Shown here one piece after another: positions 22,440 to 56,180 of a DNA stretch of 58,460 nt. The notes under the pieces were generated by a model. The model searched no databases, had not been told where the DNA came from, and saw nothing but the letters and a program-made list of their open reading frames with translations. The DNA comes from Escherichia phage SHIN8: the sequence record PP627280.1. One strand, written 5' to 3'. The position numbers and the translations under genes are program-made. How positions within the stretch are numbered: position 1 is the first letter of the stretch; every line of letters begins with the position of its first letter.

Positions 22440-24425
22440 TTAGGCGTATCCCATGTCTTCGAGATACTTCTCTGCTTTAGCTATATAAGCATCATAATCT
22501 ATGTCGTCCGGTATTTTATCCGGTAGCGTCATAATCGGGACACCTCCCGCGCTACCAGCTACACGGTTGCCCGAGTTAGCATAGATTATTTCAGGTGTTT
22601 CTTCATTAGTGCTTAAGTACCAGCGTACAACCTTACCCAAAAATTCGCCATTCCATACCGCGCCGCCTTTTACCGCACGTAGGATAATGAATTTTCTAAT
22701 ATCGTTGCAATTGCGTATAGTACGAGAAACAGGCGTACCGTGGGCCAAACATTCACATACAGATTCCATAATGATCTCACCAGTACAGTTCTTTTGAAGA
22801 CCTGTCTTTGCGAACCACCCTTTACGTTTAATTTCAACATTTCCTTCCTCGTCAGGTTCTTTTACTGCAACATAGTTATTGACGTTAGCGCTGTACAGCT
22901 TGTCATAGTAGTTGGACTCCATTTCAAAGCCTGTCACGGATTCCCACCACTTGATCATATTATCAACGAAGTCCTGCATATGGTCCGGATACTTAACCAC
23001 AATACCATCCGTGTTCGCTGAAATTACTTTAACACCGTTCAGCTCAAACGCTTCAATAAGCATCAACAGTGAAAGCTGTCCAGTTAATGTAACTTGTATC
23101 AATAATTGGGGCGCGTACAGTACGGACCACATAGACCCCAACTTACCGAACGATCCGTTGATGACGATCTTCAGCGTGTTGGCTGTGTTTTTGTCTCCGC
23201 TGTGCTTAGCTGCAATACGGCGGTCTACAATACTTTTATAAACACGAAGGAACGCTGGTCCCAACTGTTCTGGATATAAGCCCTGATTAAGAATGATTGA
23301 AGGATAATAAGACGTTACGTCAATGTCCCGCTTTTTGATACCAGGCTCTTTACCGTGGCCAGCACACTCTTCGGAGCTATGTAAACCACCAATACCCATA
23401 CGGTAGACACCGTCTGCAATCTTGATCTCAAGACCTGTTAATGCTGGAGGTAAGCTGACACCACCGTTATCGCTAACAATAAAGCGACAGTCCCGAACAA
23501 TATCCAGAACACTATTCATCAAAGGTGTTTGAAAACGAATAAAGTCCGGTATGTTGTATGCATACTTTGTTCCAGGATAAACTTGCGGACGCTGTGGGCG
23601 CACGCCCGTTAACGCTTGGATTTCGTGCTTAATCACGTCTTCTGCAATCTGTGCATCGGAGCGTGAACGTAGATCCACACCGTATTCTTGCGACATAATT
23701 TCACGCAAGTGAATAGGCTCTTGCAATGCAATAAAACATTCTTCTGTTTGTACAAGGTCGTTAATACAGTACCAGCGTACAATTAACATCTGGTCCTGCG
23801 TTAACATGGTATTGGGTTTGAACGGTAAATCCTGCATACGTCGAGTATGTACACGTCCGCCGTATTGTTTCAAACCGCCGGACCCAGGCAGCACTTCCAT
23901 GATATCAATGTGGTTAACGTTCTGCATACGCTTGAGACGGTAACTTTTCAATACATCCGAAGGACGCCAGTCTTCAACGATTATCTTATCGGTCGCGTCT
24001 TTAAGCTGCGCATTAGAACAGCCGTTAAGCGCAAGCGTAGCAATGGGCATATCGTACCCGTTACCGTTAAAGCTCACGATAAGGAAGTTTGTCATCACCC
24101 AGTTAAGTAATAAGCAATTCAAACTACAACCGTGATACATCTCGAAGTAGACAACTTTCTTAGTTCGCACTCCGCGAAATGCAATTAAGAAATAATTTGG
24201 ATAACATTCTATATCATATACAAGCGGTTCGCGGTTAATCCATGCTTGAATAAGTTCGTCCTGTGTGTACAGGTTGTATTGGAAGTTCCGCGCTTCCTCA
24301 AGATTAGGCAAATAATCCGGGCGCTCCCAAGTGCGCTCCGGCGGTAAACGTTTAACCTTTTCTTTCTTTGCTTTTGGCTCAGGCGGTAAGTCCTGCCAAA
24401 AGAAACCTATAGCATCGGTTCGCAT
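22440..24425 (-). CDS. DNA polymerase, family B-like with 3'-5' exonuclease
   Basis: 661 aa; exo motif YDIECYPNYF; DVTSYYPSI (motif A-like), KIVINGSFGKLG, ANTDGIVV. Confidence 0.75.
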   Translation of the reverse strand: MRTDAIGFFWQDLPPEPKAKKEKVKRLPPERTWERPDYLPNLEEARNFQYNLYTQDELIQAWINREPLVYDIECYPNYFLIAFRGVRTKKVVYFEMYHGCSLNCLLLNWVMTNFLIVSFNGNGYDMPIATLALNGCSNAQLKDATDKIIVEDWRPSDVLKSYRLKRMQNVNHIDIMEVLPGSGGLKQYGGRVHTRRMQDLPFKPNTMLTQDQMLIVRWYCINDLVQTEECFIALQEPIHLREIMSQEYGVDLRSRSDAQIAEDVIKHEIQALTGVRPQRPQVYPGTKYAYNIPDFIRFQTPLMNSVLDIVRDCRFIVSDNGGVSLPPALTGLEIKIADGVYRMGIGGLHSSEECAGHGKEPGIKKRDIDVTSYYPSIILNQGLYPEQLGPAFLRVYKSIVDRRIAAKHSGDKNTANTLKIVINGSFGKLGSMWSVLYAPQLLIQVTLTGQLSLLMLIEAFELNGVKVISANTDGIVVKYPDHMQDFVDNMIKWWESVTGFEMESNYYDKLYSANVNNYVAVKEPDEEGNVEIKRKGWFAKTGLQKNCTGEIIMESVCECLAHGTPVSRTIRNCNDIRKFIILRAVKGGAVWNGEFLGKVVRWYLSTNEETPEIIYANSGNRVAGSAGGVPIMTLPDKIPDDIDYDAYIAKAEKYLEDMGYA

Positions 24426-24996
24426 TTAATCCGCTCCATTGCTTCTTTAATTGCTAGAATCATATGGTCATAACGACTAACACCACTACCGTCGCAAGTA
24501 TGTGCGCCAAGTACGTGAAATTTAGCAAAACGCTCAGGTCCGTTTACACGTCCAATATGAACATGCTTATTATTTTCCAATCCCCATAAAACAATATCCG
24601 CAGCATGTTCAGAATCTTTAAACTCCGTAGTTCCGCCAATAAAGATACAATCCGCTTCATTTGGAATACTATCACAACCATCCTGGGCTACAAATGCTTT
24701 CTTCCAACCGTCTGCTAGATGGTTGTATTGCCCCACATTTCAAGAGTAGTTTTATGATCCCCAACTTTATCCGGAACGCAGACAAATAAGCATTGGTCTT
24801 TAACATGATATTCTCGTTTAAGAAGAGAAATAAACTCTTTCTCACGAAACCCGCTGTATGCGCCGTTATCAATTGCAAATACAGGTTCACCGCGAGTATA
24901 TCTGGTCAATGGTGTTAATAATTGCCCAACAACGCCTTCCGGCCATTGGGTCTTACGGAAAGCTATACGGTCACGATGCCCGTCAATCAAAAATTT
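24407..24996 (-). pseudogene. hypothetical gene split by single-base frameshift at a C4/G4 run
   Basis: track ORFs 24715-25053 and 24407-24736 are contiguous; adding one G at 24731-24734 gives one ~196-aa ORF (..TTLEMWGQYNHLADGWKK..). Confidence 0.4.
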
Positions 24997-24998
24997 CA

Positions 24999-25952
24999 TT
25001 AGACACGTTCTCCAATTAACACACCGCGAAGATTTTCCCCAAAGAATGCGCAAGGTTGCGGATATAAACTAAAGTCCGCAGTCTTAACCACATTTTCGAG
25101 TAATAACAGGATGTCGATATTGTAAACTCCCGTTATTGATCTGTCCTGCAATACGAAGCTTGCACCTTCTGCATCATCGTAATGAGTACGCGCTAGACCG
25201 TTTTCAATATATACGCGAGGACGATCTTCCGCAAAAGGTTTAATTTTATGCAAGCCCTCAAAAAGACCTGGATCAACAGGATGTGCATTACATTGAACAT
25301 TTAAAATACGACGTATATCAGGCCACTCCGCATCAATAAGCTGTGTTCGCAACCAGCGACCTTCCGGATAATGAAACGTCACATTGTTCTTGCTAACCTG
25401 AATATGTGTCGGGTTAGCTTTAATGCGCAGTATTTCTTTAATAGCAACAGACGGTATTATGCAGTCAATAGGGAATTGATTACCAAACCAATATTCCGCA
25501 ATGGTGACGTTATTTGTAGCAAACAGGCTACCGTTATTAATCAGAATACCGCAAGCCCACGGGCGGGACGCATCCGAGCCTACAAACGGAGCAACAGACT
25601 TCACACCGTGTACGAAGCGAGCACCGTCTATTTCGTATAAATCGCCTTCAGGGAATACGTGAGGTGTTTCCTTGTCAATACAGCGTATAGCAACACGAAA
25701 CGGTCCGGACTTGATATTAAGTTTACCGTTAGCCATCATTGTTAACTGTACGGTTTCGTCACAGTTTGAAATAGCTTTAATCATAAGCCCAGCTTCGGGT
25801 TTGCAATCAATATCCAGCTCAATAGGGCTACCCAGTGCAATAACACCGTTAAAGCCCTGTACCTGTCCATCACGGATAAGAAAGCTGGTAAGCCCTTCTA
25901 CCAGTTCCTTTCGAGCGACGGAGCCTTGAACAAATTTAAGAGCGTCTAACAT
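24999..25952 (-). CDS. sliding clamp (DnaN/beta-clamp-like)
   Basis: 317 aa; DAEWPDIRRILN resembles the DnaN DGRFPDYRRVLP segment. Confidence 0.5.
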   Translation of the reverse strand: MLDALKFVQGSVARKELVEGLTSFLIRDGQVQGFNGVIALGSPIELDIDCKPEAGLMIKAISNCDETVQLTMMANGKLNIKSGPFRVAIRCIDKETPHVFPEGDLYEIDGARFVHGVKSVAPFVGSDASRPWACGILINNGSLFATNNVTIAEYWFGNQFPIDCIIPSVAIKEILRIKANPTHIQVSKNNVTFHYPEGRWLRTQLIDAEWPDIRRILNVQCNAHPVDPGLFEGLHKIKPFAEDRPRVYIENGLARTHYDDAEGASFVLQDRSITGVYNIDILLLLENVVKTADFSLYPQPCAFFGENLRGVLIGERV

Positions 25953-26179
25953 TAGCGATCCTCGATTGCTCTAATTGTGGTTAAATCTAATTCGCAGGTT
26001 GGAGGGTATCCATAAAGTCCCATTTGTTTTCCTTGTGCATTAAACCATGTACCTGACGGATCCTGCCATTGCTTAGGTGTCTTGTGGAGAAATACTACTC
26101 TGTTTTCACCGTAATAATTAATTCTTACGCCTGTGTGAGTATATTTACGTTTACCTTTTGGTCTTCTTAAGTTAGCCAT
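25952..26179 (-). CDS. hypothetical protein
   Basis: 75 aa, basic. Confidence 0.35.
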   Translation of the reverse strand: MANLRRPKGKRKYTHTGVRINYYGENRVVFLHKTPKQWQDPSGTWFNAQGKQMGLYGYPPTCELDLTTIRAIEDR

Positions 26180-27099
26180 CAGAACAACTCCATTACACGA
26201 TCACGGAATGTGCCGTCATGGGTGGCGTTAATGTTTGCAGCAATTACACCATACGCCCATAAGTTGAAGGCAGCACGTGATTCATAGATTGTTGATAAAC
26301 GTTCGTAAGTGAAACCGTTTTGCTCAAGGTATTTAAGGACAGCGTCTTGTTCAATTTCAGTTAATGTTGAAACATGCTTACCAAAATGATGACGGTCCGG
26401 TGACTTATCTGAAACGCGCATTAGTCCCCACGGAGGGGTAACCACACTTCCAAACGCTGCCGCTTGTATCCAGGAGGATGAGTCGCAGCTATACCACGGG
26501 TAACGTTCCATAATGGTTGTGGACGTAATACCAAACGCATGAAGTTTAATCTTAGCACGTCCGCTACCGTCGCAAATGTATTTGTCCCACATGCGGTCAA
26601 GCCAAGTCTTAAGCGTGTCCGTGGAACGCCCTACCATGCCACCGATAGTGATATATTCGTAGTTCTTCATGTAGTATTCAAGATAGCGGAAGTCCTCCCC
26701 AAAGTGAAAGCAAGGTAACGGTTTAGCACCGCGTGCTTCCATTTCAAGTTGGTTACGGTAGGTTTGCAACGGATCACCGATACCATCGAGCACCGACGCC
26801 ATTACTGCGCCATCTTCTACGCGAAGGATGTCTTTGTTGCGCTTGATGTATTCGCAGTATTCAACAATATCAATGTGAGCACCTAACGAGTGCGCGGAGA
26901 ATGCACCGGAGTCGAGAAACACTTTAGCCCCGTCCGCACGCATTTGATCAACATACTTCTGACGCCCAACGTAGTGGTAGGATTCCAAAATATTTGGAAG
27001 GCTATTAACAATGTCTTTTTCCCGATCGTTTAACTTTTCATATCGTTGTTGACCAGCTTTATAGCCGTTGGTATATACCGCAGCGACAAACAGATGCAT
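26179..27099 (-). CDS. dpdA: DNA-guanine transglycosylase (TGT-like, DpdA-type)
   Basis: 306 aa; VFLDSGAFSAH TGT-type motif; adjacent to preQ0 synthesis genes. Confidence 0.7.
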   Translation of the reverse strand: MHLFVAAVYTNGYKAGQQRYEKLNDREKDIVNSLPNILESYHYVGRQKYVDQMRADGAKVFLDSGAFSAHSLGAHIDIVEYCEYIKRNKDILRVEDGAVMASVLDGIGDPLQTYRNQLEMEARGAKPLPCFHFGEDFRYLEYYMKNYEYITIGGMVGRSTDTLKTWLDRMWDKYICDGSGRAKIKLHAFGITSTTIMERYPWYSCDSSSWIQAAAFGSVVTPPWGLMRVSDKSPDRHHFGKHVSTLTEIEQDAVLKYLEQNGFTYERLSTIYESRAAFNLWAYGVIAANINATHDGTFRDRVMELF

Positions 27100-27656
27100 T
27101 ATTCCACCTCAAATTTATTACGCTTAGATCTGTTTTCTTCAATAGATAAGTATTGTAGGTTACTAAGGACGTGAAGTCCACTGACTCTTTTACCGCAAAG
27201 AGGTATAATATGATCAACCTCCATCCCATCCGGGCAGTTAGCGTAGAACAATTCAATTTGTTCTTTTTCAGACCACGCAGGGATTCTTAAAGACCTTTTC
27301 TTATGCACTTCAAGGGAATGTAACCTTGATCTAGCTTTACCGTAATCTGTCTTAGCCCAGCGTTTCAGCCTTTCTTTATTTTGTTCTTTACCTTTCTCAG
27401 TAGAATTATAAGCAGCTTTTGAACGTTGAAGGGCTTCTTTTCCTTTCTGTGACTTATGGTATCTCTTAATAGCATTCCTTGCAGCTTCTGTTTTATTGTA
27501 AATACGCATTCTTTTCTTTCGTGCTTCTCTGTCACAAGTAATACAATAGCCATCTACAGTCTTTCTTTCAGAAACATGACCTTTCGCACAAGGCTTACCA
27601 GTAAAATAATATTTCAAACCTCTTTCTTTTGCTTCAGCTCTTGTGATAATTTCCAT
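27099..27656 (-). CDS. HNH homing endonuclease
   Basis: 185 aa; C-terminal DHIIPL...N...N HNH motif; Cys pairs; AT-rich codon usage. Confidence 0.65.
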   Translation of the reverse strand: MEIITRAEAKERGLKYYFTGKPCAKGHVSERKTVDGYCITCDREARKKRMRIYNKTEAARNAIKRYHKSQKGKEALQRSKAAYNSTEKGKEQNKERLKRWAKTDYGKARSRLHSLEVHKKRSLRIPAWSEKEQIELFYANCPDGMEVDHIIPLCGKRVSGLHVLSNLQYLSIEENRSKRNKFEVE

Positions 27657-27670
27657 TGTCTTATACCAAC

Positions 27671-27708
27671 TAAAAAGCCCATACCAGTATTATGACCGAT
27701 ATGGGCTT
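27671..27708 (-). terminator. putative intrinsic terminator between folE and HNH/dpdA
   Basis: AAGCCCATA/TATGGGCTT 9-bp stem followed by TTTTT on minus strand. Confidence 0.4.
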
Positions 27709-27726
27709 GATCTGTAAAGCTATCTA

Positions 27727-28368
27727 TTATTTACAAGCTTCAAGGAACTCCCGGCGCCATTCTTTACCAATATCGCTACCATGCTCCAGTTCTGTAGCGC
27801 CCCGGAATGCTTTAGTAATAGTAGAGCTGCCGCATACCTGCTTAACACCGCGTGACTCCATGCACATATGCTTGGCGTCAACATAAACACATACAGCTTT
27901 CGGGTTTAAATGCTCCTGAATAGCGTCTGCAATCTGGTTAGTAAGACGTTCCTGAACTTGCAGTCGACGACTAAAAGCATCCACAACGCGAGACAGCTTA
28001 CTAAGCCCAACAATCTTCCCATTGGGGACATAACCCACGACAGCATGACCGATGATAGGAGCCATGTGATGCTCACAATGACTATACACAGGGATATCAC
28101 GGACAATGACCATTTCATTGGTGTTTTCCGCCCCGTCTTCAAAGGTCTTAAATAACCCAGCAATATCTACATCGTAACCGCTAAACCACGTTGCATAAGC
28201 TTTCGCTACACGCTCCGGAGTTTCCTCCAGTCCTGGGCGCAGAACCGCGCTAACTTCAATTTGGGATAGTAAAGTACGCACAGCGTTAGCAATACGGAAT
28301 TGAACACCTTCACTATTAATACTATATTTAGACATGGTTTGCAGTTTCCTTGTTGTTAATGTGGTCAT
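27727..28368 (-). CDS. folE: GTP cyclohydrolase I
   Basis: 213 aa; SHCEHHMAPIIGHAVVGYVP active-site region. Confidence 0.85.
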   Translation of the reverse strand: MTTLTTRKLQTMSKYSINSEGVQFRIANAVRTLLSQIEVSAVLRPGLEETPERVAKAYATWFSGYDVDIAGLFKTFEDGAENTNEMVIVRDIPVYSHCEHHMAPIIGHAVVGYVPNGKIVGLSKLSRVVDAFSRRLQVQERLTNQIADAIQEHLNPKAVCVYVDAKHMCMESRGVKQVCGSSTITKAFRGATELEHGSDIGKEWRREFLEACK

Positions 28369-28369
28369 A

Positions 28370-28906
28370 TCACAGGCTATAGTTTACGTGGCATTTCGAA
28401 GTTTCTTCGATGGTGCATTCTACAAGTTGAACACCATGTTCGTCAAGCAGTAGCGGACCAATTACTTCAACCATATATGCAGCTAGATTTTCCGCAGTTG
28501 GGTTGAACGGCAAAGATACAAGTGAATCGTTAAAAGCTTTAAGATCTTCATCCCCTTCACCGAAAGTAGGCCAACCGCGTTCAGATTGAGTATCCGTTTC
28601 AATACAACATTGCAGTCCGTTGATCAACATATCCTTTTCCCAATGTAGAAACTTATGATCCCAGTTATCTTCTAGCCACTGGCAGAGCGTAGTTTTAACC
28701 ACACTAAAGTCGATCACGCGCCCAACGCTGTCCAGACCGTCCTCAATCAGCTTTCCTCGTGTCACTACTTTTCCGCATCCATGTTTCGGTGCAACTTTAA
28801 AATGAAACTTATAGTTGTGACCGTGGAGGTGGCGACATTTGCTTTCATGTCCTACAACACGGTGACCAGCGCAAATTTCATGTGAACGGATTACTGTATA
28901 GCTCAT
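28370..28906 (-). CDS. queD: 6-carboxy-5,6,7,8-tetrahydropterin synthase
   Basis: 178 aa; ICAGHRVVGHESKCRHLHGHNY Cys/His zinc motif. Confidence 0.75.
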   Translation of the reverse strand: MSYTVIRSHEICAGHRVVGHESKCRHLHGHNYKFHFKVAPKHGCGKVVTRGKLIEDGLDSVGRVIDFSVVKTTLCQWLEDNWDHKFLHWEKDMLINGLQCCIETDTQSERGWPTFGEGDEDLKAFNDSLVSLPFNPTAENLAAYMVEVIGPLLLDEHGVQLVECTIEETSKCHVNYSL

Positions 28907-29178
28907 TTTAATACCTCTTCTACTCTATTCATAAATTCCAAATGACGACGCATAGTTTCTTCTTTTGTGGAAGAATTACAATGCGACCAACCATTATCTA
29001 AGAAATATGCCCAATAATATTCACCATACTTCTTCCGCATAGCGGGAATGGGACATTTCCTTCTTTCAAGCTTAGGGTTCTGTGATCTTATATAAGCTTG
29101 TTTTTCTTTAAGACTTAATGCTTCAAACCAGTCAGCTTGCTCGTGGTACTTTAAATGTTTTGGAGGTACAGGGATCAT
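28903..29178 (-). CDS. hypothetical protein embedded in deazaguanine cluster
   Basis: 91-aa ORF. Confidence 0.4.
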   Translation of the reverse strand: MIPVPPKHLKYHEQADWFEALSLKEKQAYIRSQNPKLERRKCPIPAMRKKYGEYYWAYFLDNGWSHCNSSTKEETMRRHLEFMNRVEEVLK

Positions 29179-29753
29179 TTAATCACCTCTTTAGATTGTT
29201 CAATTTCTAACGCACGCTGTGCGGACGCAATAATGTCTTTCAAATCTTCTAACAGATTTTTATGACCGCGTTCGCCCGGCTGCAACGCTTTTTTGATTAA
29301 ATGCTGCAAAGCTGGGTTAGTTGTCTTCCAAGCTTCCAAGACATCATACACATCCACGATACACTTTACAACATTTCCGTTTTGATCTTTACCACGAATA
29401 ACTTTCTGATATTTATTCATGGGAATTTTAGATGGTTTGTATTTCGTAAAAACTGCACCATTAAATGTATTACTTATGCTTGTTTCAGAAGCTTGATGGT
29501 ACAATCCGGAGCGAGTGTTTTCGCTAGCTTGTTTGACGTAATCATCCGCAACAATATAACGCCAAGATATAACTGAATCCTTTTCTAACGGTATTACATT
29601 ATCGCAGGATTTTTTATACCAATCCCATCCTTGCTTATGGTTCTTCTTAATAGATCCATTAGCTAATTGAACTTCAAATTGCTCATTCTGAAGAAAAATA
29701 GGCATTCCTTTTCCATCATGTTTGTGCCAAATTTTATTCAAATTATCTTTCAT
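29175..29753 (-). CDS. hypothetical protein embedded in deazaguanine cluster
   Basis: track ORF trimmed to ATG 29753; Lys/Asn-rich, AT-rich. Confidence 0.4.
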   Translation of the reverse strand: MKDNLNKIWHKHDGKGMPIFLQNEQFEVQLANGSIKKNHKQGWDWYKKSCDNVIPLEKDSVISWRYIVADDYVKQASENTRSGLYHQASETSISNTFNGAVFTKYKPSKIPMNKYQKVIRGKDQNGNVVKCIVDVYDVLEAWKTTNPALQHLIKKALQPGERGHKNLLEDLKDIIASAQRALEIEQSKEVIK

Positions 29754-29755
29754 TT

Positions 29756-30235
29756 TTACGCTCTCGCTGTACGTGAATGAACTTCGTAAACAACCCAAAG
29801 AATAGCGGACGCTGTGAACTTACTTAAGCTCATTGCTACCATAGATCCCGGATTAACAATACCTATAATACTTAAGAACACAATGGAGTCAATCGGTACA
29901 GCTACCAAAGAGCTGATAAATACACGTTGATGAAAAGGCTTCTTGGTGACCGTGTATACCACATAATCAGCAAACTCACTAAGCGCAAAAGACGCAACGG
30001 ATGCAACTACAACCGCAGGATCTCCAAACACCCAGCTAAGGATGCAGCCAACGATCATTGCAGGGATAACACCTTTACCCGCGTTACGCTGTGCGTAATC
30101 ACGCAGGACAAAGATAATGCTTACAAAGAAAGCCATCATGGGGACTACGCCAAGTGGCGTATTAAGCATCGGAAGGTAGGAAAAGCCCAGGTTTACGAAT
30201 GTAATTGCAGCCAGATAAGCAACGATAAATTTCAT
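29756..30235 (-). CDS. polytopic membrane protein, possible 7-deazaguanine precursor transporter (YhhQ-like)
   Basis: 159 aa, 4-5 hydrophobic helices, located between queD and queC. Confidence 0.4.
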   Translation of the reverse strand: MKFIVAYLAAITFVNLGFSYLPMLNTPLGVVPMMAFFVSIIFVLRDYAQRNAGKGVIPAMIVGCILSWVFGDPAVVVASVASFALSEFADYVVYTVTKKPFHQRVFISSLVAVPIDSIVFLSIIGIVNPGSMVAMSLSKFTASAILWVVYEVHSRTARA

Positions 30236-30355
30236 ACTTTTGTTCTCCAGTTTTAACAGCGCTATTCGCTGGTTGTTGGGTTTAAAAGATTTAGTACTAT
30301 AGTTGGGTTACCGCACCCTAAACAATGCGCTAGCGGTGCGGTTTTCTCGGTAAGA

Positions 30356-31063
30356 TCAAGCTTTGCTAATAAATTCGCTGTACCCTTTAGCACGCAATTT
30401 GCACGCAGGGCATTCTCCGCAACCGTATCCCCAATCATGCAGAGTACGACGGACGCCGTTATAGCAAGTATGTGACCGCTCAATCACTGTGGTTAAGAAA
30501 CCAACCTTATCCGCCAGCTCAAACGTTTCTGCTTTATTTAAACGCATAAGCGGAGTAACAAAATGGATATCTGTTTCATATCCAACGTTTAACGTAGCTT
30601 CAAGCAGATCTACAAACTGCTGGCGGCAATCCGGATAACCGCTATAGTCCGTTTCACAAACGCCTGTAACCACATATCGAGCTCCAACCTTCTGCGCGTA
30701 GGCGTGCGCGGTAGTCAGGAAAAGAGCATTACGGTTTGGCACAAAGCTTGCCGGAAGGTTGTTGTGCTGTTCGTGATGTTCGTTAACATCACCTTCATTC
30801 CCGATTAAAGCACTATTGCCAATCTGTTTCAAAGCAGGTAATTCAAAGACAACAAACGGGACATTGTGCTCTTTACAAATTTGATTTGCACAAGCCAGCT
30901 CAATGTTATGACGTTGACCGTATGCAAAACCAATAGCATACACCTTATCATAGTTATTAAGGGCAAGACCCAAACAGGTGACGCTGTCCTGGCCGCCAGA
31001 CAGGACGACAACGGCGGAGTTATGATTTTTTACAGGGAATACCAGTTTATCTAATTTATTCAT
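30356..31063 (-). CDS. queC: 7-cyano-7-deazaguanine synthase
   Basis: 235 aa; PP-loop VVLSGGQDSVTC; C-terminal Cys cluster CYNG...CGECPAC. Confidence 0.85.
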   Translation of the reverse strand: MNKLDKLVFPVKNHNSAVVVLSGGQDSVTCLGLALNNYDKVYAIGFAYGQRHNIELACANQICKEHNVPFVVFELPALKQIGNSALIGNEGDVNEHHEQHNNLPASFVPNRNALFLTTAHAYAQKVGARYVVTGVCETDYSGYPDCRQQFVDLLEATLNVGYETDIHFVTPLMRLNKAETFELADKVGFLTTVIERSHTCYNGVRRTLHDWGYGCGECPACKLRAKGYSEFISKA

Positions 31064-31064
31064 T

Positions 31065-31253
31065 TTAGAAACCTTTAAGGTTAATATTAAGGTTAACGAC
31101 TACTTGTTCAACTACATCTTCAGAGGTTACCTGACGCTTGTGAATCTCAAGCTCCGAGTATATTTTCTTGGATGCAGCACGGCAAATAGCGTCATTTAAC
31201 TCGTCCTGTAAACGTTGAATCTTTTGCATAAGAATTACAGTCTCTTCATTCAT
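31065..31253 (-). CDS. hypothetical protein
   Basis: 62-aa ORF. Confidence 0.3.
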   Translation of the reverse strand: MNEETVILMQKIQRLQDELNDAICRAASKKIYSELEIHKRQVTSEDVVEQVVVNLNINLKGF

Positions 31254-31458
31254 CTACTTCACCTTTAATATCACAAGGGTTGATTGTTACGTTAGACATT
31301 ACAATTGGATGATTGCGCGCTCCAATTGTACTAACGTGATTAATATCTAATTCTACATGCACGCCCTGCATAGTAGCATGAGCAATTGAAGAATTAAGTT
31401 TTTCTACCAGCTCAGTGATCATTTCCTGATGCTGTTTCGCTTCTTCTAAAGTGATCAT
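31246..31458 (-). CDS. hypothetical protein
   Basis: 70-aa ORF. Confidence 0.3.
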   Translation of the reverse strand: MITLEEAKQHQEMITELVEKLNSSIAHATMQGVHVELDINHVSTIGARNHPIVMSNVTINPCDIKGEVDE

Positions 31459-32165
31459 TATTCCACCCCAATATATTTGTGAACCTGAAGCTGCAACGTG
31501 TAACCGTGTTTCATACAGCTTTGGACAACGGCTTGGATATTACTGTGGTTAAGGTCTTCATCCTGCTCGTCCATTGGCTGTAAATATATCTTACCCTTGA
31601 AACCCTTCGGAGGTCTAGCGATAAATGGCGTAGCTTGATGATCTAATGCCTGAAGCGGCAAACCATCTTCCACGTTTACACAGCACGCTTTAAGTACATA
31701 TTTAAATGCATTAGCGCGGCGCAGCACAGAAGGATGAATCTTTGAGGTCTTGGGACTACATACAATTACAGGTGACTGGGAAAAGTTCTTAGGTAAAGGC
31801 ATAGACCCATTAGTTTCAATTTGCACCAAATACCCGCGCGATAACAGTTGTTCAATAAACGGGTTAATTTGCTGACGGAACGGTTCACCCCCAGTGATAA
31901 CCACAAGTGAGGTGCTATTGCCGGATTCCAGCTTACGGCTTTCGATTAAACGCATAATATCGACAATGTGATAAAGACTACGACCAACAGTATAATCTGT
32001 ATCACAGCCAGGGCATTGCAGATTACACCCAGCAAGACGCACAAATACAGCAGGTTGGCCGCAGAATGGACCTTCACCCTGAATGGTAGAGAATACCGAA
32101 TGCACGTCTAAATACATATCGTTTTCTTTAGAACGGGACTCGGGAGCTTGTTGATTAATATTCAT
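31458..32165 (-). CDS. queE: 7-carboxy-7-deazaguanine synthase (radical SAM)
   Basis: 235 aa; CNLQCPGC (Cx3Cx2C) radical-SAM motif. Confidence 0.8.
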   Translation of the reverse strand: MNINQQAPESRSKENDMYLDVHSVFSTIQGEGPFCGQPAVFVRLAGCNLQCPGCDTDYTVGRSLYHIVDIMRLIESRKLESGNSTSLVVITGGEPFRQQINPFIEQLLSRGYLVQIETNGSMPLPKNFSQSPVIVCSPKTSKIHPSVLRRANAFKYVLKACCVNVEDGLPLQALDHQATPFIARPPKGFKGKIYLQPMDEQDEDLNHSNIQAVVQSCMKHGYTLQLQVHKYIGVE

Positions 32166-32180
32166 CTTAAATCCTCTAGT

Positions 32181-32209
32181 GAAAAAGAAAGCGCCTCATT
32201 GGGCGCTTT
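32181..32209 (-). terminator. putative intrinsic terminator
   Basis: AAAGCGCC/GGCGCTTT stem followed by CTTTTTC on minus strand. Confidence 0.45.
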
Positions 32210-32234
32210 CATTATAACGTGATATGTTTTGATA

Positions 32235-33047
32235 TTACAAGCCGTTCAGGGCTTCCGGTACTGGCATAGGCACACGGCCAGTTACACCATTAAACTTCTT
32301 CCAACGTGCATACTGAGTTTTAACGGTATCTTCGTTCAGACCGTGGCGACCAGCCAGATTCAGAACATAAGAGATCGGAGCAGGCTGACCCAGCGTAGCG
32401 CTAATCTGATCCATCAGAGCCCAGGCACGACCGCAGGAAGTCTCAGGTTGTGGACGACGAACACCATTCTGTTCAGGCATACGGTTCGCTTCTTTCGCTT
32501 TTTCACGTTCAGCTTTTTCGCGGGCTTTTTCAGCAGCCTTTTCAGCCTGTTTAGCAGCGCGGATCTTGTCTTTGAAGCCTTTGATAAACGAATCCAGTTC
32601 GTCAACCATGCTCTGAGCAGCACTTACTGCACCGGACAGATCTTCATCTTTGGATTTTTTAACAACTGCTTTCAGCTCTTTCAGTTTATTCTTAAAAAGC
32701 TTCAGCTGTTCAGAACCCTGAAATTCAGCTACCGTAATCTCTTCAATAGTGCCTTTATCGGCAACATCGGATAAAACAGACCTCACGGTTTCAACTCCGC
32801 GGGAAAGAGCGGTAAATTTATTTTCCGCTACAGCACGAATTTCAGCTTGTTTCTTTTCAGCGGCAGCTTTTTTCTCTGCTTCTTTTTTCTCTTTTGCTAC
32901 GCGTGCAGCTTCAGCAGCAGCGGCTTTTTTAGCCTCTGCGTCGTTAGCAGTAGCTTCTTTCTTTGCAGGCTTAGCAGATTTTGCAGCGGCAGCAGCGGCT
33001 GCGGCAGCAGCGGCTTTCTTATCTTCAATATTACTCATTTTCTTCAC
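32235..33047 (-). CDS. Ala/Lys-rich low-complexity protein, possible histone H1-like DNA-binding protein
   Basis: 270 aa; N-terminal AAAAAAAAAAKSAKPAKK and AKKA repeats; structured C-terminal domain. Confidence 0.4.
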   Translation of the reverse strand: MKKMSNIEDKKAAAAAAAAAAAKSAKPAKKEATANDAEAKKAAAAEAARVAKEKKEAEKKAAAEKKQAEIRAVAENKFTALSRGVETVRSVLSDVADKGTIEEITVAEFQGSEQLKLFKNKLKELKAVVKKSKDEDLSGAVSAAQSMVDELDSFIKGFKDKIRAAKQAEKAAEKAREKAEREKAKEANRMPEQNGVRRPQPETSCGRAWALMDQISATLGQPAPISYVLNLAGRHGLNEDTVKTQYARWKKFNGVTGRVPMPVPEALNGL

Positions 33048-33165
33048 TCCGAATTATTATGGGTTCGTTTGTTACCAACGGGGTTAAATGTACCAAAGGA
33101 TTTTGTGACACGCAACCCCTTACATAAACATTTTTAAAAATATTTTTGATCAGGGTTAGAACTTA

Positions 33166-33660
33166 TTAGCTCTTCGCACCTCTGCCCGGTGTCCATGCTG
33201 CTTGCAATGCGGGTTGCTCACAAATGACCCTGGCACCGGAAATAATACCACCCTCCCGTTCAGCATCGTATTTGACACGGGCAGGTTTCCAAAGTCCTTC
33301 ATCCATTGACGGTACGTATTGCCCAAGTTGAGGCGAGCAAAAGCCCTGGATATCATATTCCACACAGAATTCGGCTTGTGCGCTAATTTGGGCGTGATCC
33401 AGGATTGTTTCTGGAAGTTGCGTAAAGTAATCAGACAAAATGCGCTCAACGATTTCCCGTTCATATGGTGCAGCTCCTAAATTTTCTGTCAGGTTAATAT
33501 AAAGCATTTGAAGATCTACATCTTCAAGATCTTTTAAATCGTTTACTGGTGTTACCAGTGTTGACTCCGGACAACAGATAATTCCAAGTTGGTGTAGTGT
33601 CAACCAATTGGGATGTTTTGCCAAGAGTTCAAATTTATCTGTATCAATTAGGACGTACAT
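33166..33660 (-). CDS. hypothetical protein
   Basis: 164-aa acidic ORF; AGGGGA RBS. Confidence 0.4.
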   Translation of the reverse strand: MYVLIDTDKFELLAKHPNWLTLHQLGIICCPESTLVTPVNDLKDLEDVDLQMLYINLTENLGAAPYEREIVERILSDYFTQLPETILDHAQISAQAEFCVEYDIQGFCSPQLGQYVPSMDEGLWKPARVKYDAEREGGIISGARVICEQPALQAAWTPGRGAKS

Positions 33661-33681
33661 TGCAATCCCCTATAAATAAGT

Positions 33682-33704
33682 AATGCCCCAATAGTAGGGG
33701 CATT
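33682..33704 (-). terminator. weak putative terminator or RNA hairpin
   Basis: AATGCCCC-aatagta-GGGGCATT. Confidence 0.3.
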
Positions 33705-33719
33705 AGATGTTGAAGTCAA

Positions 33720-35702
33720 TTAGAACGGGACGTAATCCGGATCATCTACTTGTACAGGGTTAACCACATTGTTCACCGTTATGCCTTGCGTATTCTGCGA
33801 AACAATATCGTCCCAGCTTACATCATCGTTATAGCTCGGACCTTCTGTTGTTCCATCCTGCCCGTATACTTTAACCTGAATAGCTTCGTCGTCCTGTGGA
33901 GCTTCAAACTTACCGAAACAAGTACCATCATAATCATAGTTCAATATCTCAGGCCATTTCTTATTGGTATGAACTTTGATGTATTTTGGTGTTTTAAGCA
34001 TTGCAGCAACATCAAGAGCTTCTTCAATAGTTTGTGGTAAAGGTAAATGTGTCCTTTTCTTCCACCATGCAACAGCTTTACGACCTGCCCAGTCCCCATG
34101 AAGCAGAGCTACCCATTCACTGAATATTTTACTACCGCAATAATAAGTCACCTTCATTGTTGGAGGTTTAGAGCTGTCATTGCGTTTAGTATGCTTTGCA
34201 TAAGTAACATGCGTAACTTTGAAGTCTTCAACTACTGGAATATCCTGCTTGATCAGGGCTTCCGTACTTGCAGCTTTCTTGAGTTTGGTCTGGAACTTAA
34301 ACTCATGACCGCAAAAGCCTTCTTTAACGTAATCCGTCCCGCGTAGCCTAAATCCTTTCAGATATAATTGTTGAACTTGTTCCTGTGTGACGCTGTCCAT
34401 TGGGATTGGTGCGAAGCCACCGCAATAGCGAGCGGATGCATGATTATACGACCCACATACATCGCATTCTTTAACCGGAGCAGTACCAGCACCTTTTTCG
34501 CCAGGGCGCTTGGGTTTAACAGGGTCGTTAATAGGGCCCAAACGGCGCGTATTGCCGCTGAAATCCAGTACAAGGCAGTTCTGCTTGGGGCTTGCCGCAA
34601 TAGCTTGTAAGCGCCCCTCCTGCGTGGAAAGATCAAAGCCCTCCGCGTACACCGGACGCGTACCGCGACCCAGCATCTGGACCCATAGCACCGCCGACGC
34701 AGTTGGGCGGAGCATGATAATTAAGTCCAGCATTGGATGATCAAAACCTGTGGTTAAGACGTTATTGTTAGTTAATGCACGAAATTCACCGCGCTTGAAC
34801 TTTTCAATAATCTCGTCACGTTCTTTTGCATCAAGCTTAGAGTGAATACATCCACAGCTAATACCCATATCGTTCAGCATATCGCAGGCGTCTTTAGCGT
34901 GTTCAATACCAGAACAAAATATAAGCCAGCTTTGACGGTCTTCACCACATTCAATCGCTTCCTCAAGTGCGCGGAGTGTTGCGTCATCGCGGTTTACCGC
35001 ACTTTGCAGCTCACTCTGGATAAACTCACCGCCGCGTTTACCTACCCCGTTGATGTCCAGCTCCATCTTAGTACGCTTTGGCACAACCGGAAGAAGATAA
35101 CCTTGCTCCAGGAACCAGTTAAAGGCTTCCGGAGTAGTTGCATCGAACGTTACCTTATCAAATAACGCATCATCGTCTTCGTTTTCCTTGACAATTGAAC
35201 CATACCCCAGTCGATAAGGTGTAGCAGTAAGGCCGATGATTTTTAAGTAAGGGTTAACTTCACGCAACGCTGCAAAGAACTTCTTATACATTGTTGCATC
35301 ACGCGGACTAATAAGATGCGCTTCATCCACAAAAATAAGATCAACTTTGCCGAACTTTTTCGGATGCTTAGCAACGGACGCAATCCCTGCAAAGGTAATA
35401 AGATTGTAGACTTCTTTACGCTTCAAACCCGCGCTGTAAATACCTGCTGGCGCTTCGGGCCAGACTTTCATTAATTTATCATAGTTTTGTGCAATTAACT
35501 CTTTGACGTGAGTTAACATCATTACGCGCTGGTTTGGATACCATTTGTAAAGCAGATCGAGGAACCCCGCGATAACGAGCGATTTTCCTGTCCCTGTTGG
35601 TAACAGGATCAAAGGGTTCCCCGCGTTACCCTTTTCAGCATCAAAATAGCGGAATACGCTATAAACTGCTTCCTGTTGATAATCGCGGAGCCTCATAATC
35701 AA
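33720..35702 (-). CDS. DEAD/DEAH-box superfamily 2 helicase
   Basis: 660 aa; Walker A LPTGTGKS; FVDEAHLIS; zinc-ribbon CDVCGS...YCGG. Confidence 0.7.
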   Translation of the reverse strand: MIMRLRDYQQEAVYSVFRYFDAEKGNAGNPLILLPTGTGKSLVIAGFLDLLYKWYPNQRVMMLTHVKELIAQNYDKLMKVWPEAPAGIYSAGLKRKEVYNLITFAGIASVAKHPKKFGKVDLIFVDEAHLISPRDATMYKKFFAALREVNPYLKIIGLTATPYRLGYGSIVKENEDDDALFDKVTFDATTPEAFNWFLEQGYLLPVVPKRTKMELDINGVGKRGGEFIQSELQSAVNRDDATLRALEEAIECGEDRQSWLIFCSGIEHAKDACDMLNDMGISCGCIHSKLDAKERDEIIEKFKRGEFRALTNNNVLTTGFDHPMLDLIIMLRPTASAVLWVQMLGRGTRPVYAEGFDLSTQEGRLQAIAASPKQNCLVLDFSGNTRRLGPINDPVKPKRPGEKGAGTAPVKECDVCGSYNHASARYCGGFAPIPMDSVTQEQVQQLYLKGFRLRGTDYVKEGFCGHEFKFQTKLKKAASTEALIKQDIPVVEDFKVTHVTYAKHTKRNDSSKPPTMKVTYYCGSKIFSEWVALLHGDWAGRKAVAWWKKRTHLPLPQTIEEALDVAAMLKTPKYIKVHTNKKWPEILNYDYDGTCFGKFEAPQDDEAIQVKVYGQDGTTEGPSYNDDVSWDDIVSQNTQGITVNNVVNPVQVDDPDYVPF

Positions 35703-42455: not shown

Positions 42456-42977
42456 TTAACCATTGTTGGAAAATTCACCGTGCAAAATTGCACGCATTTC
42501 CTTCAGCCATTGTGTCGCTTTATTTTTACCTTCATCATTAAATGGGAAATACCTATAATAGTTTTTACCATTCAGCCGAATCTGCGCTAACCAACTATTG
42601 CTGCTTTTAGATTTGTTATGTGTAAGACCTTTAACCCCGCTTGAATTGTTACTATATTTAAATCTATTATGTGCGTTCTGACTAGAATCGCAAGCCCTCA
42701 AATTGTATTGAGCATTATTCAGTTTATTGCAGTCATCATGATCAATTTCTTCAGGTTCTTCATCATAGAGCATTTTCCAGATTATACGGTGGACAAAATA
42801 TGAAATGCCATCAATCTTTGTTCTAAGATGACCAGTTGTATGAACCCATCCAACGCAAGATCCCTTTGGAGCTCTGTTGCTTCTATGAATCTTCCATGTT
42901 AATGCACCCGTCGACGGATCATAGTCAAACAGCTCCAGAAGCTGCTCTTGTGTAAGGTGTATAGGCTTCGCTTTCAT
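42456..42977 (-). CDS. HNH homing endonuclease with AP2-like DNA-binding domain
   Basis: 173 aa; HRIIW...DHDDCNKLNN HNH_3-type motif; AT-rich. Confidence 0.65.
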   Translation of the reverse strand: MKAKPIHLTQEQLLELFDYDPSTGALTWKIHRSNRAPKGSCVGWVHTTGHLRTKIDGISYFVHRIIWKMLYDEEPEEIDHDDCNKLNNAQYNLRACDSSQNAHNRFKYSNNSSGVKGLTHNKSKSSNSWLAQIRLNGKNYYRYFPFNDEGKNKATQWLKEMRAILHGEFSNNG

Positions 42978-47512: not shown

Positions 47513-47523
47513 GATTTATCCTT

Positions 47524-47739
47524 TTACTGAGAACTAACCATTGCACAACCGATGGCAGCAAATAAGTGCTTCTTAGTCTCGTTGATCACTTTCTCTGCAT
47601 CCAGATAGCTCTCATAATGTCCAAGGTAAATAATAGTCCCTGCAACCATGATATAAGCTGTGCGGTAATGCATGTAATGCCCAATGAACCATCCCTGCTC
47701 CCGAAGCTTATTTTGTCCAACTTCACTAAGTACCATCAT
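47524..47739 (-). CDS. hypothetical protein
   Basis: 71-aa ORF. Confidence 0.35.
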   Translation of the reverse strand: MMVLSEVGQNKLREQGWFIGHYMHYRTAYIMVAGTIIYLGHYESYLDAEKVINETKKHLFAAIGCAMVSSQ

Positions 47740-47939
47740 GACCTCCGACGCTTATCGCCTTGCATCTTTTCCAGGGCGGGCACTGCTAAGGAACGTTTGT
47801 AGATGTACTGGTTAGCGATTCTGATAGCGCCCGGGATGCTGTCACGTATGCGCGACATCTTAAACTTAGATATGCCATAACGGTCTTCAATTTCCGCCGC
47901 CGTTATGTAGTTCAAATCAAATTCCGATTCGTGATCCAT
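47736..47939 (-). CDS. helix-turn-helix DNA-binding protein (putative regulator)
   Basis: track ORF trimmed to ATG 47939 with GGAGGG RBS; YITAAEIEDRYGISKFKMSRIRDS HTH-like. Confidence 0.4.
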   Translation of the reverse strand: MDHESEFDLNYITAAEIEDRYGISKFKMSRIRDSIPGAIRIANQYIYKRSLAVPALEKMQGDKRRRS

Positions 47940-48004
47940 AATACCCTCCGTTACAACCGTCCACACAATACACAGTAAAGTCCTACTTTGCAACTATTTT
48001 TGCA

Positions 48005-48733
48005 TTATTGCGGAGTTGTGATAATATGGTTACCAACTTCTAACATAACGTCCTGCGGCTCTCTTCCCTGTCTTAAGCTAATGAGCCAATTATCAATATT
48101 AGGAAGAATATTTTTAGCCTGCTCAGAATCCCTGTATAGTGCAAGGTCTACCCATTGAGCCCCAAGCTTGACACGGATAGCGGTAGCGGTTTCGTAATGG
48201 TGCAGGGAACACGTAGGCCAGCGACCGCGATTATCCCAATCCTGGATATCGCCACTCCGGCGCATTCTGTACCAGCGATGGGTTAGTTTATCCATTTCCT
48301 TATCCGTCAGAGCATCCCCTTTAAGCAAAGCTTGGCGCTGTATCCAGGCCTTAAGCTCGGCGTTTTCCTTGCGCCCGGTTTTACCCTTATCTACTTTTAC
48401 CTTAAGTGCTTCCTCATAGGGATCGTTACCCTTGCCCATGTGGTAATTGAATTTGCCCGTATAGCTGCGAAGCTCTTTGGCGTCCAGCTCATGCCCCAGC
48501 TTATCGCTAACCCATGCAAGGAAAGCCGCACGCTCTGCATCCAGTTTACCCGCTTTTTGTCTTACCGCTTTTTTAACTGGTTGCTCCACATCTTCGTTGA
48601 AGTAATCCTCCACCATAGCAAGCGCCTGAGCCTTAGTGGGCACGCCCCGTAACCGCGAGCACGCTTGCACGACCCAGGCAGCAAAGCACAAATCCTTAAC
48701 CACAGTTTTAGATGTAATAGTTTCTTCGCTCAT
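48005..48733 (-). CDS. hypothetical protein (first gene of a leftward operon)
   Basis: 242 aa; GGAGGA RBS; candidate promoter immediately upstream. Confidence 0.45.
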   Translation of the reverse strand: MSEETITSKTVVKDLCFAAWVVQACSRLRGVPTKAQALAMVEDYFNEDVEQPVKKAVRQKAGKLDAERAAFLAWVSDKLGHELDAKELRSYTGKFNYHMGKGNDPYEEALKVKVDKGKTGRKENAELKAWIQRQALLKGDALTDKEMDKLTHRWYRMRRSGDIQDWDNRGRWPTCSLHHYETATAIRVKLGAQWVDLALYRDSEQAKNILPNIDNWLISLRQGREPQDVMLEVGNHIITTPQ

Positions 48734-56179: not shown

Positions 56180-56180
56180 A

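Follow-up and report, generated by a model that had tools for sequence, protein, structure and literature searches.

What does the minus-strand gene block at 26179-32165 of Escherichia phage SHIN8 do to the phage's DNA, and do the uncharacterised genes lodged within it add anything to that chemistry? The window analysed here, 58,460 bp in length, is the complete genome of SHIN8, a Seuratvirus (Queuovirinae) that is collinear with phage CAjan from nucleotide 1 (blastn coverage 89%); by megablast, the block itself is 95% identical to phage KS_A3 and about 93% identical to CAjan. An earlier annotation made from the letters alone (the sequence-only reading) had recognised in the block a pathway to the free base preQ0 (7-cyano-7-deazaguanine) and a transglycosylase of the DpdA type, had predicted 2'-deoxy-preQ0 (dPreQ0) in virion DNA as a protection from restriction, and had proposed extra tailoring, transport or self-targeting-avoidance functions for the inserts. 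The open reading frames (ORFs) that it had drawn were found on the minus strand where it had placed them, within the unbroken series of minus-strand genes that emerged from an ORF listing of 24000-35000. Here, our comparisons indicate that the block is, very probably, a CAjan-type phage 7-deazaguanine (dPreQ0) system. In itself the cluster adds nothing new, since published work already covers this known system from its chemistry and genetics to its target motifs and its role against restriction; the one new point lies beyond the coordinates of the block, in a second, smaller DpdA-like gene that we call mini-DpdA.

Judged by sequence, all four enzymes of the preQ0 pathway are unambiguously present, and the motifs quoted by the sequence-only reading were each found in their ORF. 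FolE (GTP cyclohydrolase I, 213 aa, 27727-28368) matches PF01227 at E=1e-63, carries SHCEHH and is 84% identical to CAjan FolE, while QueD (6-carboxytetrahydropterin synthase, 178 aa, 28370-28906) matches PF01242 at E=5e-22, carries CRHLHGH and is 77% identical to its CAjan counterpart. QueE (7-carboxy-7-deazaguanine synthase, a radical S-adenosylmethionine [SAM] enzyme, 235 aa, 31458-32165) is 99.6% identical to CAjan QueE and carries CNLQCPGC; its matches to TIGR04322 (E=2e-28) and TIGR04508 (E=8e-27) both lie under the equivalog cut-offs. QueC (7-cyano-7-deazaguanine synthase, 235 aa, 30356-31063) matches PF06508 at E=1e-74 and TIGR00364 with 242 bits against a cut-off of 150, carries SGGQDS and is 97.4% identical to CAjan QueC. 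The Pfam and NCBIfam scans also bore out that QueC is standalone, with no amidotransferase domain, and that QueF is missing: the sole QueF-family match was sub-threshold and fell inside FolE, with which QueF shares the T-fold. The same scans found no Gat-QueC, ArcS, QueF, DpdC, DpdL, DpdM or DpdN in the cluster or in the window-specific ORFs, distant undescribed enzymes being beyond their reach, and no QueF, amidotransferase or methyltransferase among the window-specific ORFs elsewhere in the genome. Since QueC is standalone, the expected product is dPreQ0.

The enzyme predicted to place preQ0 in DNA is the 306-aa product of 26179-27099, a DpdA1-type DNA guanine transglycosylase that matches phrog_887 'queuine tRNA-ribosyltransferase' at E=6e-94, carries VFLDSGAF and, over 306 aa, shares 95.4% identity with CAjan DpdA. 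The sequence-only reading had called it a DpdA-type tRNA-guanine transglycosylase (TGT) homologue and had named a failure to match TGT-family profiles as grounds for dropping the call. Such a failure was indeed seen in Pfam, where no family, TGT PF01702 included, was matched even at E<=10; the NCBIfam DpdA model NF041059 was matched weakly (17 bits where its cut-off is 200; E=0.002), and a profile built from 34 family members found no TGT/DpdA chain in PDB. The call nevertheless stands through orthology to the genetically validated CAjan DpdA, which in our reading of these sequences overrides the missing match and leaves it as a mark of the divergence of phage DpdA1. Membership in the TGT/DpdA superfamily rests on fold, catalytic residues and the genetics of CAjan. 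In an AlphaFold2 model (predicted local distance difference test [pLDDT] 89), a (beta/alpha)8 barrel is followed by a hairpin and then by a C-terminal helical domain. Residues D63, D105, H132, G153-G154 and D206 show little or no variation in the family and sit at strand ends in the model, with the catalytic aspartates at the ends of beta3, beta4 and beta8, and the gate aromatic F67 stands four residues past D63. These positions, D63/F67, D105, H132 and D206, correspond to D95/F99, D130, H181 and D256 of Salmonella DpdA (PMC10164549). DpdA1 has neither the TGT Zn subdomain nor a CxCx2C motif, which makes the Zn site a hallmark of TGT and bacterial DpdA and not of the phage enzymes.

The chemistry of this gene set has been worked out in CAjan. 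By mass spectrometry, CAjan DNA holds 70,628 dPreQ0 per 10^6 nucleotides, about 32% of G, and none in a dpdA mutant, with other species below 6 per 10^6 nucleotides (PMC6884629). Nanopore mapping and restriction digests gave GA and GGC as the modified motifs, and deletion of dpdA, folE or queC abolished the modified nanopore signal (PMC7544227). The folE and queC mutants retained a little dPreQ0, which the authors ascribed to host preQ0 (for queC, the level was about 12-fold lower), and the modification was found to shield the DNA from restriction (PMC6884629, PMC7544227). In the Seuratvirus phiHS1, a replacement of 29.5% was measured (bioRxiv 10.64898/2026.05.19.726188), and when ORFs 41-48 of the SHIN8 sister phage DruSM1 (its 'moron, auxiliary metabolism' block) were knocked out, infectivity was lost on BREX type I and restriction-like systems (bioRxiv 10.1101/2024.04.14.589459). 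As SHIN8 DpdA is 95% identical to that of CAjan, it most likely acts at GA and GGC as well. G in one of these two contexts makes up 28.5% of SHIN8 G, or 63,180 per 10^6 nucleotides, a share that matches the measurements in CAjan and phiHS1. By analogy, we infer that SHIN8 behaves as CAjan, phiHS1 and DruSM1 do; the predicted dPreQ0 in virion DNA and its predicted anti-restriction role draw support from the collinearity and protein identities with CAjan, and SHIN8 DNA would be expected to resist many G-reading restriction enzymes and to disturb nanopore basecalling.

Many GenBank records label the orthologues of these genes queuosine tRNA-ribosyltransferase or queuosine biosynthesis, as would suit a queuosine pathway that modifies host or phage tRNA and not DNA. 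We consider such a pathway extremely improbable, since dPreQ0 occurs in CAjan DNA itself and depends there on dpdA (PMC6884629), since DpdA matches no TGT profile and is without the Zn subdomain of TGT, and since no QueF, QueA or QueG genes that could complete queuosine were found in the Pfam and NCBIfam scans. The 'queuosine tRNA' labels on the cluster genes are misleading, and DNA modification remains our preferred reading of the block.

Within this DNA-modification cluster, the inserts were the part for which the sequence-only reading had held out additional functions. Its guess that the polytopic membrane protein (29756-30235) imports precursors was right in kind: by sequence, the 159-aa product appears to be a YhhQ/Vut_1 homologue and is a putative preQ0 transporter. 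It matches PF02592 (Vut_1) at E=1e-5 (26.3 bits, cut-off 27.2) and TIGR00697 'queuosine precursor transporter' at E=7.5e-5 (22.6 bits, cut-off 51), several overlapping hydrophobic stretches cover most of its residues 3-137, and it is 99.4% identical to the 'putative preQ0 transporter' of CAjan. Deletion of yhhQ in CAjan left the modification unchanged and gave no phenotype (PMC7544227). An Rfam scan at E<=1 for a preQ1 riboswitch or other RNA upstream of the yhhQ-like gene or within the cluster returned a single sub-threshold sraL match. Between queC and the yhhQ-like gene, the intervening 120 bp (30236-30355) contain a GC-rich hairpin, CCGCACC...GGTGCGG, with no T tract and no Rfam match, and phage SA80RD has an annotated terminator at the equivalent position.

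Five further ORFs of the cluster have no assigned function. Two of those listed by the sequence-only reading, orf91 (28903-29178) and orf192 (29175-29753), were borne out, whereas the single ORF that it had placed at 31065-31458 proved to be two overlapping ORFs of 62 and 70 aa, orf62 (31065-31253, phrog_24420) and orf70 (31246-31458, phrog_26258), both encoding small acidic proteins. The fifth, the basic 75-aa orf75 (25952-26179, phrog_38388), belongs to the cluster as its first gene under the published definition for CAjan, which comprises 12 genes at 28,621-34,560, six of them with assigned functions (PMC7544227). It is 100% identical across all Seuratvirus relatives compared. The basic orf91 (pI 9.3) has no Pfam, PHROG or NCBIfam match and, among the relatives compared, was found only in KS_A3 and SA80RD, its place in CAjan being taken by an unrelated 107-aa ORF. 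The product of orf192 (phrog_23361, E=1e-94), which starts at ATG 29753 in a frame that is open back to TTG 29798, is 56% identical overall to its CAjan counterpart and combines a variable N-terminal part with a conserved module, about 65 aa long, at the C-terminus. This module, encoded at 29175-29390 (the C-terminal third), reads KYxxxI..VDVYDVL.AW..NPALQHLIKKALQPGERGHK..DL.DI.ASA.RA.E and shows 60-79% identity to many otherwise unrelated phage proteins on other contigs, some of them containing a helix-turn-helix; these homologues were compared for their diverse protein architectures, independently of gene neighbourhood. Profile searches of Pfam and PDB with orf192 gave no match and no function emerged; a suspected likeness to DUF3310 was not borne out by any search match. 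The products of orf62 and orf70 are 92% and 97% identical to their CAjan counterparts and resemble each other weakly (35% over 26 aa, pairwise E=4e-4); from this likeness they may be paralogues that arose by tandem duplication. The 'radical SAM' label carried by phrog_26258 found no Pfam support for orf70. In the queE-queC interval, extra small ORFs have been gained or lost in KS_A3, SA80RD and the metagenomic contig ERZ NODE_462.

Do any of these five ORFs tailor preQ0 onward, to dADG, dPreQ1 or another derivative? Their lack of assigned function and the precedent of DpdL, DpdM and DpdN, which were found at such positions in other phages (PMC10516641), leave room for the idea. We nevertheless judge it very improbable, since CAjan carries homologues of orf62, orf70, orf192 and orf75 and yet contains essentially dPreQ0 only (PMC6884629). 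Moreover, orf91 and the N-terminus of orf192 sit in hypervariable slots, the orf192 module recurs in many proteins of diverse and otherwise unrelated architecture, and these five ORFs show no nucleotide- or cofactor-binding signature in Pfam, NCBIfam and PDB searches. Scans of each cluster ORF against Pfam, NCBIfam and PHROG yielded nothing past the assignments given here. The suggestion of extra tailoring or self-targeting avoidance thus gained no support: the insert ORFs bear no enzyme signature, and the HNH gene, to which we now turn, is patchy and homing-like.

The HNH endonuclease that the sequence-only reading had noted between dpdA and folE is present at 27099-27656. Its 185-aa product matches phrog_1035 'endonuclease VII' at E=2e-16 and carries the motif DHIIPL...N...N, the Pfam HNH match being weak (E=0.21). 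Relative to CAjan, the gene is a clean presence/absence difference of 565 bp; it is absent from CAjan, SA80RD, phiG7 and ERZ NODE_462, and 100% identical in KS_A3 and KS_S4. Homologues of 44-46% identity adjoin dpdA in the Nonagviruses SE1, JenP1 and FritzHoffmann and in Pseudomonas NP1-like phages (in NP1, at 30402-30821 on the dpdA flank), and a different HNH_3/NUMOD3 gene takes the same dpdA-flanking place in a Nonagvirus-like contig (L013 7735-8109). This recurrence beside dpdA fits homing at a conserved junction, and from its sequence and distribution the protein is most likely a homing endonuclease insert.

The same recurrence could be turned to another use, namely that the HNH protein cuts host or competitor DNA that is not modified, the phage genome being shielded by its dPreQ0. 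The shared dpdA-flanking position in three Queuovirinae lineages (a Seuratvirus subset, Nonagvirus and the Pseudomonas phages NP1/PaMx25/PAB2) at 44-46% identity, together with the different HNH_3/NUMOD3 gene at that position in L013, speaks for such a division of labour, which we regard as improbable all the same. CAjan, Seurat-type relatives, phiG7 and ERZ NODE_462, in which modification is normal or predicted to be so, do without the gene; SHIN8 itself has at least two further free-standing HNH_3 genes as lineage-specific inserts; the family is scattered over 244 unrelated phage records; and a strong terminator-like hairpin (27675-27708, minus strand, a 14-bp stem with a T run located after folE by consensus scan) parts the HNH gene from folE. 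Such features are typical of homing endonucleases parked by conserved genes, and a homing insert remains the reading that we adopt. In SA80RD, where this region is free of the HNH insert, a rho-independent terminator is likewise annotated between folE and dpdA. The other HNH_3 genes of SHIN8 lie at 42456-42977 (minus strand) and 56088-56672 (plus strand), both as inserts relative to CAjan and one with an AP2-like domain, and L013 carries at 1-2364 a helicase gene with intein/homing-endonuclease domains (Hom_end_hint, LAGLIDADG).

Beyond the block, the gene order continues from orf75 through the sliding clamp (24999-25952, minus strand) to the DNA polymerase (22440-24425, minus strand), both taken from the ORF listing. 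Between these two genes, on the minus strand and 1.2 kb from dpdA, lies mini-DpdA, which would encode about 197 aa if intact and which in SHIN8 appears as two short ORFs at 24407-24736 (109 aa) and 24715-24999 (94 aa). Both halves match one family, phrog_15826 (212 positions), at 19-90 and 103-186, and the locus is thus a single gene broken by a frameshift. The 570-bp segment that contains it (24427-24996) is absent from CAjan, KS_A3 and SA80RD. The gene overlaps its neighbours at both ends, its ATG (24999) with the stop codon of the clamp gene (TAATG) and its stop codon with the start of the polymerase gene. Intact versions of 197 aa are found elsewhere in the same syntenic position. The intact form used for comparison is a 197-aa relative on a 59.5-kb metagenomic Seuratvirus contig; against it, SHIN8 and phiG7 are both one base short at a G run at 24731-24734 (GGGG on the minus strand), where the alignment reads ATGTGGGCGCAA in the intact relative and ATGTGGG-GCAA in SHIN8 and phiG7.

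Is the protein behind this broken gene a DpdA at all? An intact homologue was modelled by AlphaFold2 (pLDDT 95.7) as a compact eight-stranded TIM barrel whose chain ends one helix after beta8, with neither a Cys cluster or Zn site nor the Ins8 nucleic-acid-binding insertion. Across 120 diverse members, D44-N45, P76-D77, T85, Q106, G122-G123, H148, G150-R151, N153, R157 and D170 vary little or not at all (D44 is conserved in at least 90%; D77, G122-G123 and D170 are invariant), the catalytic candidates all lie at strand C-termini, and a gate aromatic, Y/F48, stands four residues past D44; the roles of general acid/base, base recognition, nucleophile and gate aromatic were taken from PMC10164549. 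In hhalign, mini-DpdA aligned to a diverse DpdA1 alignment with a probability of 67% (E=5e-5, 90 columns), and a relaxed alignment paired D44/D63, D77/D105, Q106/H132, G122-G123/G153-G154, H148/H187 and D170/D206. Run against a small database, the mini-DpdA hidden Markov model (HMM) matched Rosebush DpdA with E=1.3e-3, actinophage homologues of 32-37% identity bear the depositor label 'DpdA-like tRNA-guanine transglycosylase', and fold matches among viral models included several phage 'queuine tRNA-ribosyltransferases' as well as M4SLA5 of Cellulophaga phage phiST (259 aa), equal in length to the DpdA3-like gp042 of phi19:2. Sequence searches of Pfam TGT and PDB gave no match, and Foldseek by itself did not separate mini-DpdA from generic TIM barrels. 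The family is large, with 2,490 clusters at 50% identity (E<=1e-3).

The family stands apart from DpdA2 and the DpdA3-like form and bears little likeness to DpdA4. Against DpdA2 (KVP40 NP_899370, 459 aa) and the DpdA3-like gp042 of phi19:2 (259 aa), hhalign gave probabilities of 1.5% and 0.4%, and the one-sequence HMM searches gave E=0.015 and E=0.079, neither significant; one of the 120 members weakly matched DpdA4 (HVTV-1, DUF6610) at E=0.048. Among the 25-26 phage records matched by tblastn, none was of a phage known to carry DpdA2 or DpdA3. Mini-DpdA does resemble DpdA2 (KVP40/nt-1) in missing the conserved His (PMC6884629) and resembles DpdA2, DpdA3 (phiST/phi19:2, CP220) and DpdA4 in being a divergent TGT-like protein beside preQ0-pathway genes. 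The phages that bear it are missing from the 2019 DpdA census, and no description of the family was found in the searchable literature, a scope that leaves the 2023 supplementary tables outside. From the models and conserved residues, we tentatively propose, at somewhat less than an even chance, that mini-DpdA is an undescribed minimal subfamily of DNA 7-deazaguanine transglycosylases, a bare TIM barrel that keeps the TGT/DpdA aspartates and dispenses with the Zn site and insertion.

How the gene came to be broken bears on whether SHIN8 can use it. Within a 90% cluster, the intact 197-aa protein P0392 (4 contigs) equals the repaired SHIN8 allele and P0394 (22 contigs) the repaired phiG7 allele, at least 26 uncultured contigs in all. 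SHIN8 and phiG7 thus carry different alleles, each with an intact twin, which points to independent losses, a shared type of sequencing error or instability of the tract. Codon 90 of the twin proteins encodes Gly, and GGG is the sole Gly codon one step from the GCG of a more distant intact allele; by this comparison, the likeliest event at the break is G5 to G4. Both cultured isolates, SHIN8 and phiG7, are frameshifted, while the gene is intact in at least 11 uncultured assemblies. A search for the DNA of the intact twin gave no match in E. coli genomes or plasmids, and pattern scans of IMG/VR and JGI metagenomes gave only a chance match. The G run overlaps a GGC motif of the kind modified by CAjan DpdA; a modification-induced sequencing error, recurrent slippage and counter-selection in culture are all possible. 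As part of the tentative minimal-subfamily proposal, the frameshift might reflect counter-selection or instability in culture and not simple decay.

As sequenced, mini-DpdA is treated here as inactive, and its being functional in SHIN8, whether through a sequencing error, slip-back, low-level -1 frameshifting or two half-barrel fragments, we hold to be unlikely, though a good deal less so than the other alternatives weighed above. Both halves are intact save for the single missing base, P0392 and P0394 are identical to the repaired alleles, the break falls within helix alpha4 between two (beta/alpha)4 halves, and the start and stop codons still overlap those of the clamp and polymerase genes, all of which would suit a working gene. 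The same one-nucleotide loss in two independently deposited genomes speaks against it, as does the sequence around the break: there is no canonical slippery heptamer for programmed -1 frameshifting, the downstream RNA fold is no better than that of shuffled sequence (z=-0.11), a local 11-bp stem at the break is not conserved in phiG7 or in the intact relative, and no Shine-Dalgarno sequence precedes the sole possible restart codon (GTG 24736). The two frameshifted copies differ by eight synonymous and two non-synonymous changes, and their low ratio of non-synonymous to synonymous polymorphism (pN/pS 0.07, p=1e-4) would also favour function. We had read this ratio as purifying selection on the split gene and have withdrawn that reading, since identical intact twins fit two recent independent losses or errors equally well.

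With mini-DpdA set aside as probably inactive, the parts of the locus can be arranged in one scheme. FolE, QueD, QueE and QueC would turn host GTP into free preQ0, which DpdA would exchange for guanine in duplex phage DNA after replication; acting at GA and GGC, it would bring dPreQ0 to about 28-32% of G, and restriction-type defences that depend on reading these positions would be blocked. Import of preQ0 for salvage, through the YhhQ-like membrane protein, would be optional, the HNH gene would be a selfish homing endonuclease settled at the junction of dpdA and folE, and orf75, orf91, orf192, orf62 and orf70 would probably not be tailoring enzymes. Mini-DpdA would be nominally inactivated by its one-nucleotide loss, leaving DpdA1 as the only transglycosylase at work, which is the situation in CAjan, where mini-DpdA is absent.

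Several points weigh against this scheme. The dPreQ0 chemistry is known for CAjan and phiHS1 and carries over to SHIN8 as a prediction. DpdA differs from CAjan DpdA at 14 of 306 residues, and its motif specificity could differ with them; FolE and QueD are just 84% and 77% identical to their CAjan counterparts; the DpdA ORF falls under every curated TGT/DpdA profile threshold; and five cluster ORFs are without an assigned function. Should the mini-DpdA frameshift be a sequencing error, a second transglycosylase could alter the pattern or level of modification.

The wider distribution of mini-DpdA gives the proposed subfamily its interest. Among 80 mini-DpdA loci in IMG/VR, 79 are without DpdA1, and 35 have at least one of queC, queD, queE and folE in the fetched flanks, mostly directly abutting (10 have two or more). 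One has the order queD-queC-queE-mini-DpdA (L007), and another has all four pathway genes (L038); other copies stand alone. Pairing with DpdA1 is rare, at 1 of 72 informative DpdA1 loci in IMG/VR. The order clamp/mini-DpdA/polymerase, with DpdA1 and preQ0 genes upstream, is also found in Vibrio phage R29Z, a JGI contig, a Nonagvirus-like Gat-QueC contig and the IMG/VR locus L024. Two distant phages also have the two forms near each other, which suggests that the pairing was assembled more than once: Arthrobacter phage Sonali has both DpdA forms (L016 5054-5671, 8041-8931) beside queC, queD, queE and folE, and in L182 (7986-9520) the mini gene directly follows dpdA1 with an end-to-start overlap. 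Where paired with DpdA1, as in Queuovirinae and Sonali, mini-DpdA could add a second sequence specificity or substrate. A solo copy in L014 (3271-11038) adjoins a 2,934-aa polyvalent ParB/MuF-type anti-restriction protein, and the solo copy of Erythrobacter phage ZS04 (63897-64478) is annotated 'DarB-like antirestriction protein'. Should a bare TIM barrel of 197 aa prove able to swap guanine in DNA, no transglycosylase of this kind would be smaller; the question of how DpdA enzymes recognise their DNA sequence would become sharper, and a candidate enzyme would be at hand for 7-deazaguanine insertion in the many uncultured phages that have queC, queD and queE with no recognised DpdA nearby. Elsewhere in the SHIN8 genome, a 1.1-kb segment at 47513-48733 (minus strand) has no blastn match in CAjan; neither its 242-aa ORF nor the two small ORFs beside it matched a Pfam family.

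Set beside known systems, SHIN8 is closest to CAjan, which has the same order of queE, two small ORFs, queC, yhhQ, two ORFs, queD, folE, a variable ORF, dpdA, orf75, clamp and polymerase, and which shares with it a standalone QueC, with dPreQ0 as its product. The two differ between dpdA and folE, where CAjan has a 68-aa ORF and SHIN8 the HNH gene (the 565-bp segment), at orf91, which stands in place of the unrelated 107-aa ORF, in the N-terminus of orf192, and in the extra 570-bp mini-DpdA segment of SHIN8. The dG+ system of Enterobacteria phage 9g and Nonagvirus likewise combines a DpdA1-type transglycosylase (in Nonagviruses, of about 68% identity) with FolE, QueD and QueE in the same replication-module context, but it uses a Gat-QueC fusion (458 aa in L013) to make 2'-deoxyarchaeosine, whereas the 235-aa QueC of SHIN8 has no glutamine amidotransferase. 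Of the bacterial Dpd partners, neither the DpdB ATPase nor DpdC was seen in the ORFs examined here. Compared with Salmonella Montevideo DpdA (PDB 7UI4), phage DpdA1 (306 aa) and the mini form (197 aa) are both without the CxCx2C-type Zn-site motif, and mini-DpdA further differs from DpdA and DpdA1 in having Gln where these have His and in lacking the post-beta8 insertion; the TIM barrel, the three active-site aspartates and the gate aromatic are nonetheless common to the bacterial enzyme and both phage forms (PMC10164549).

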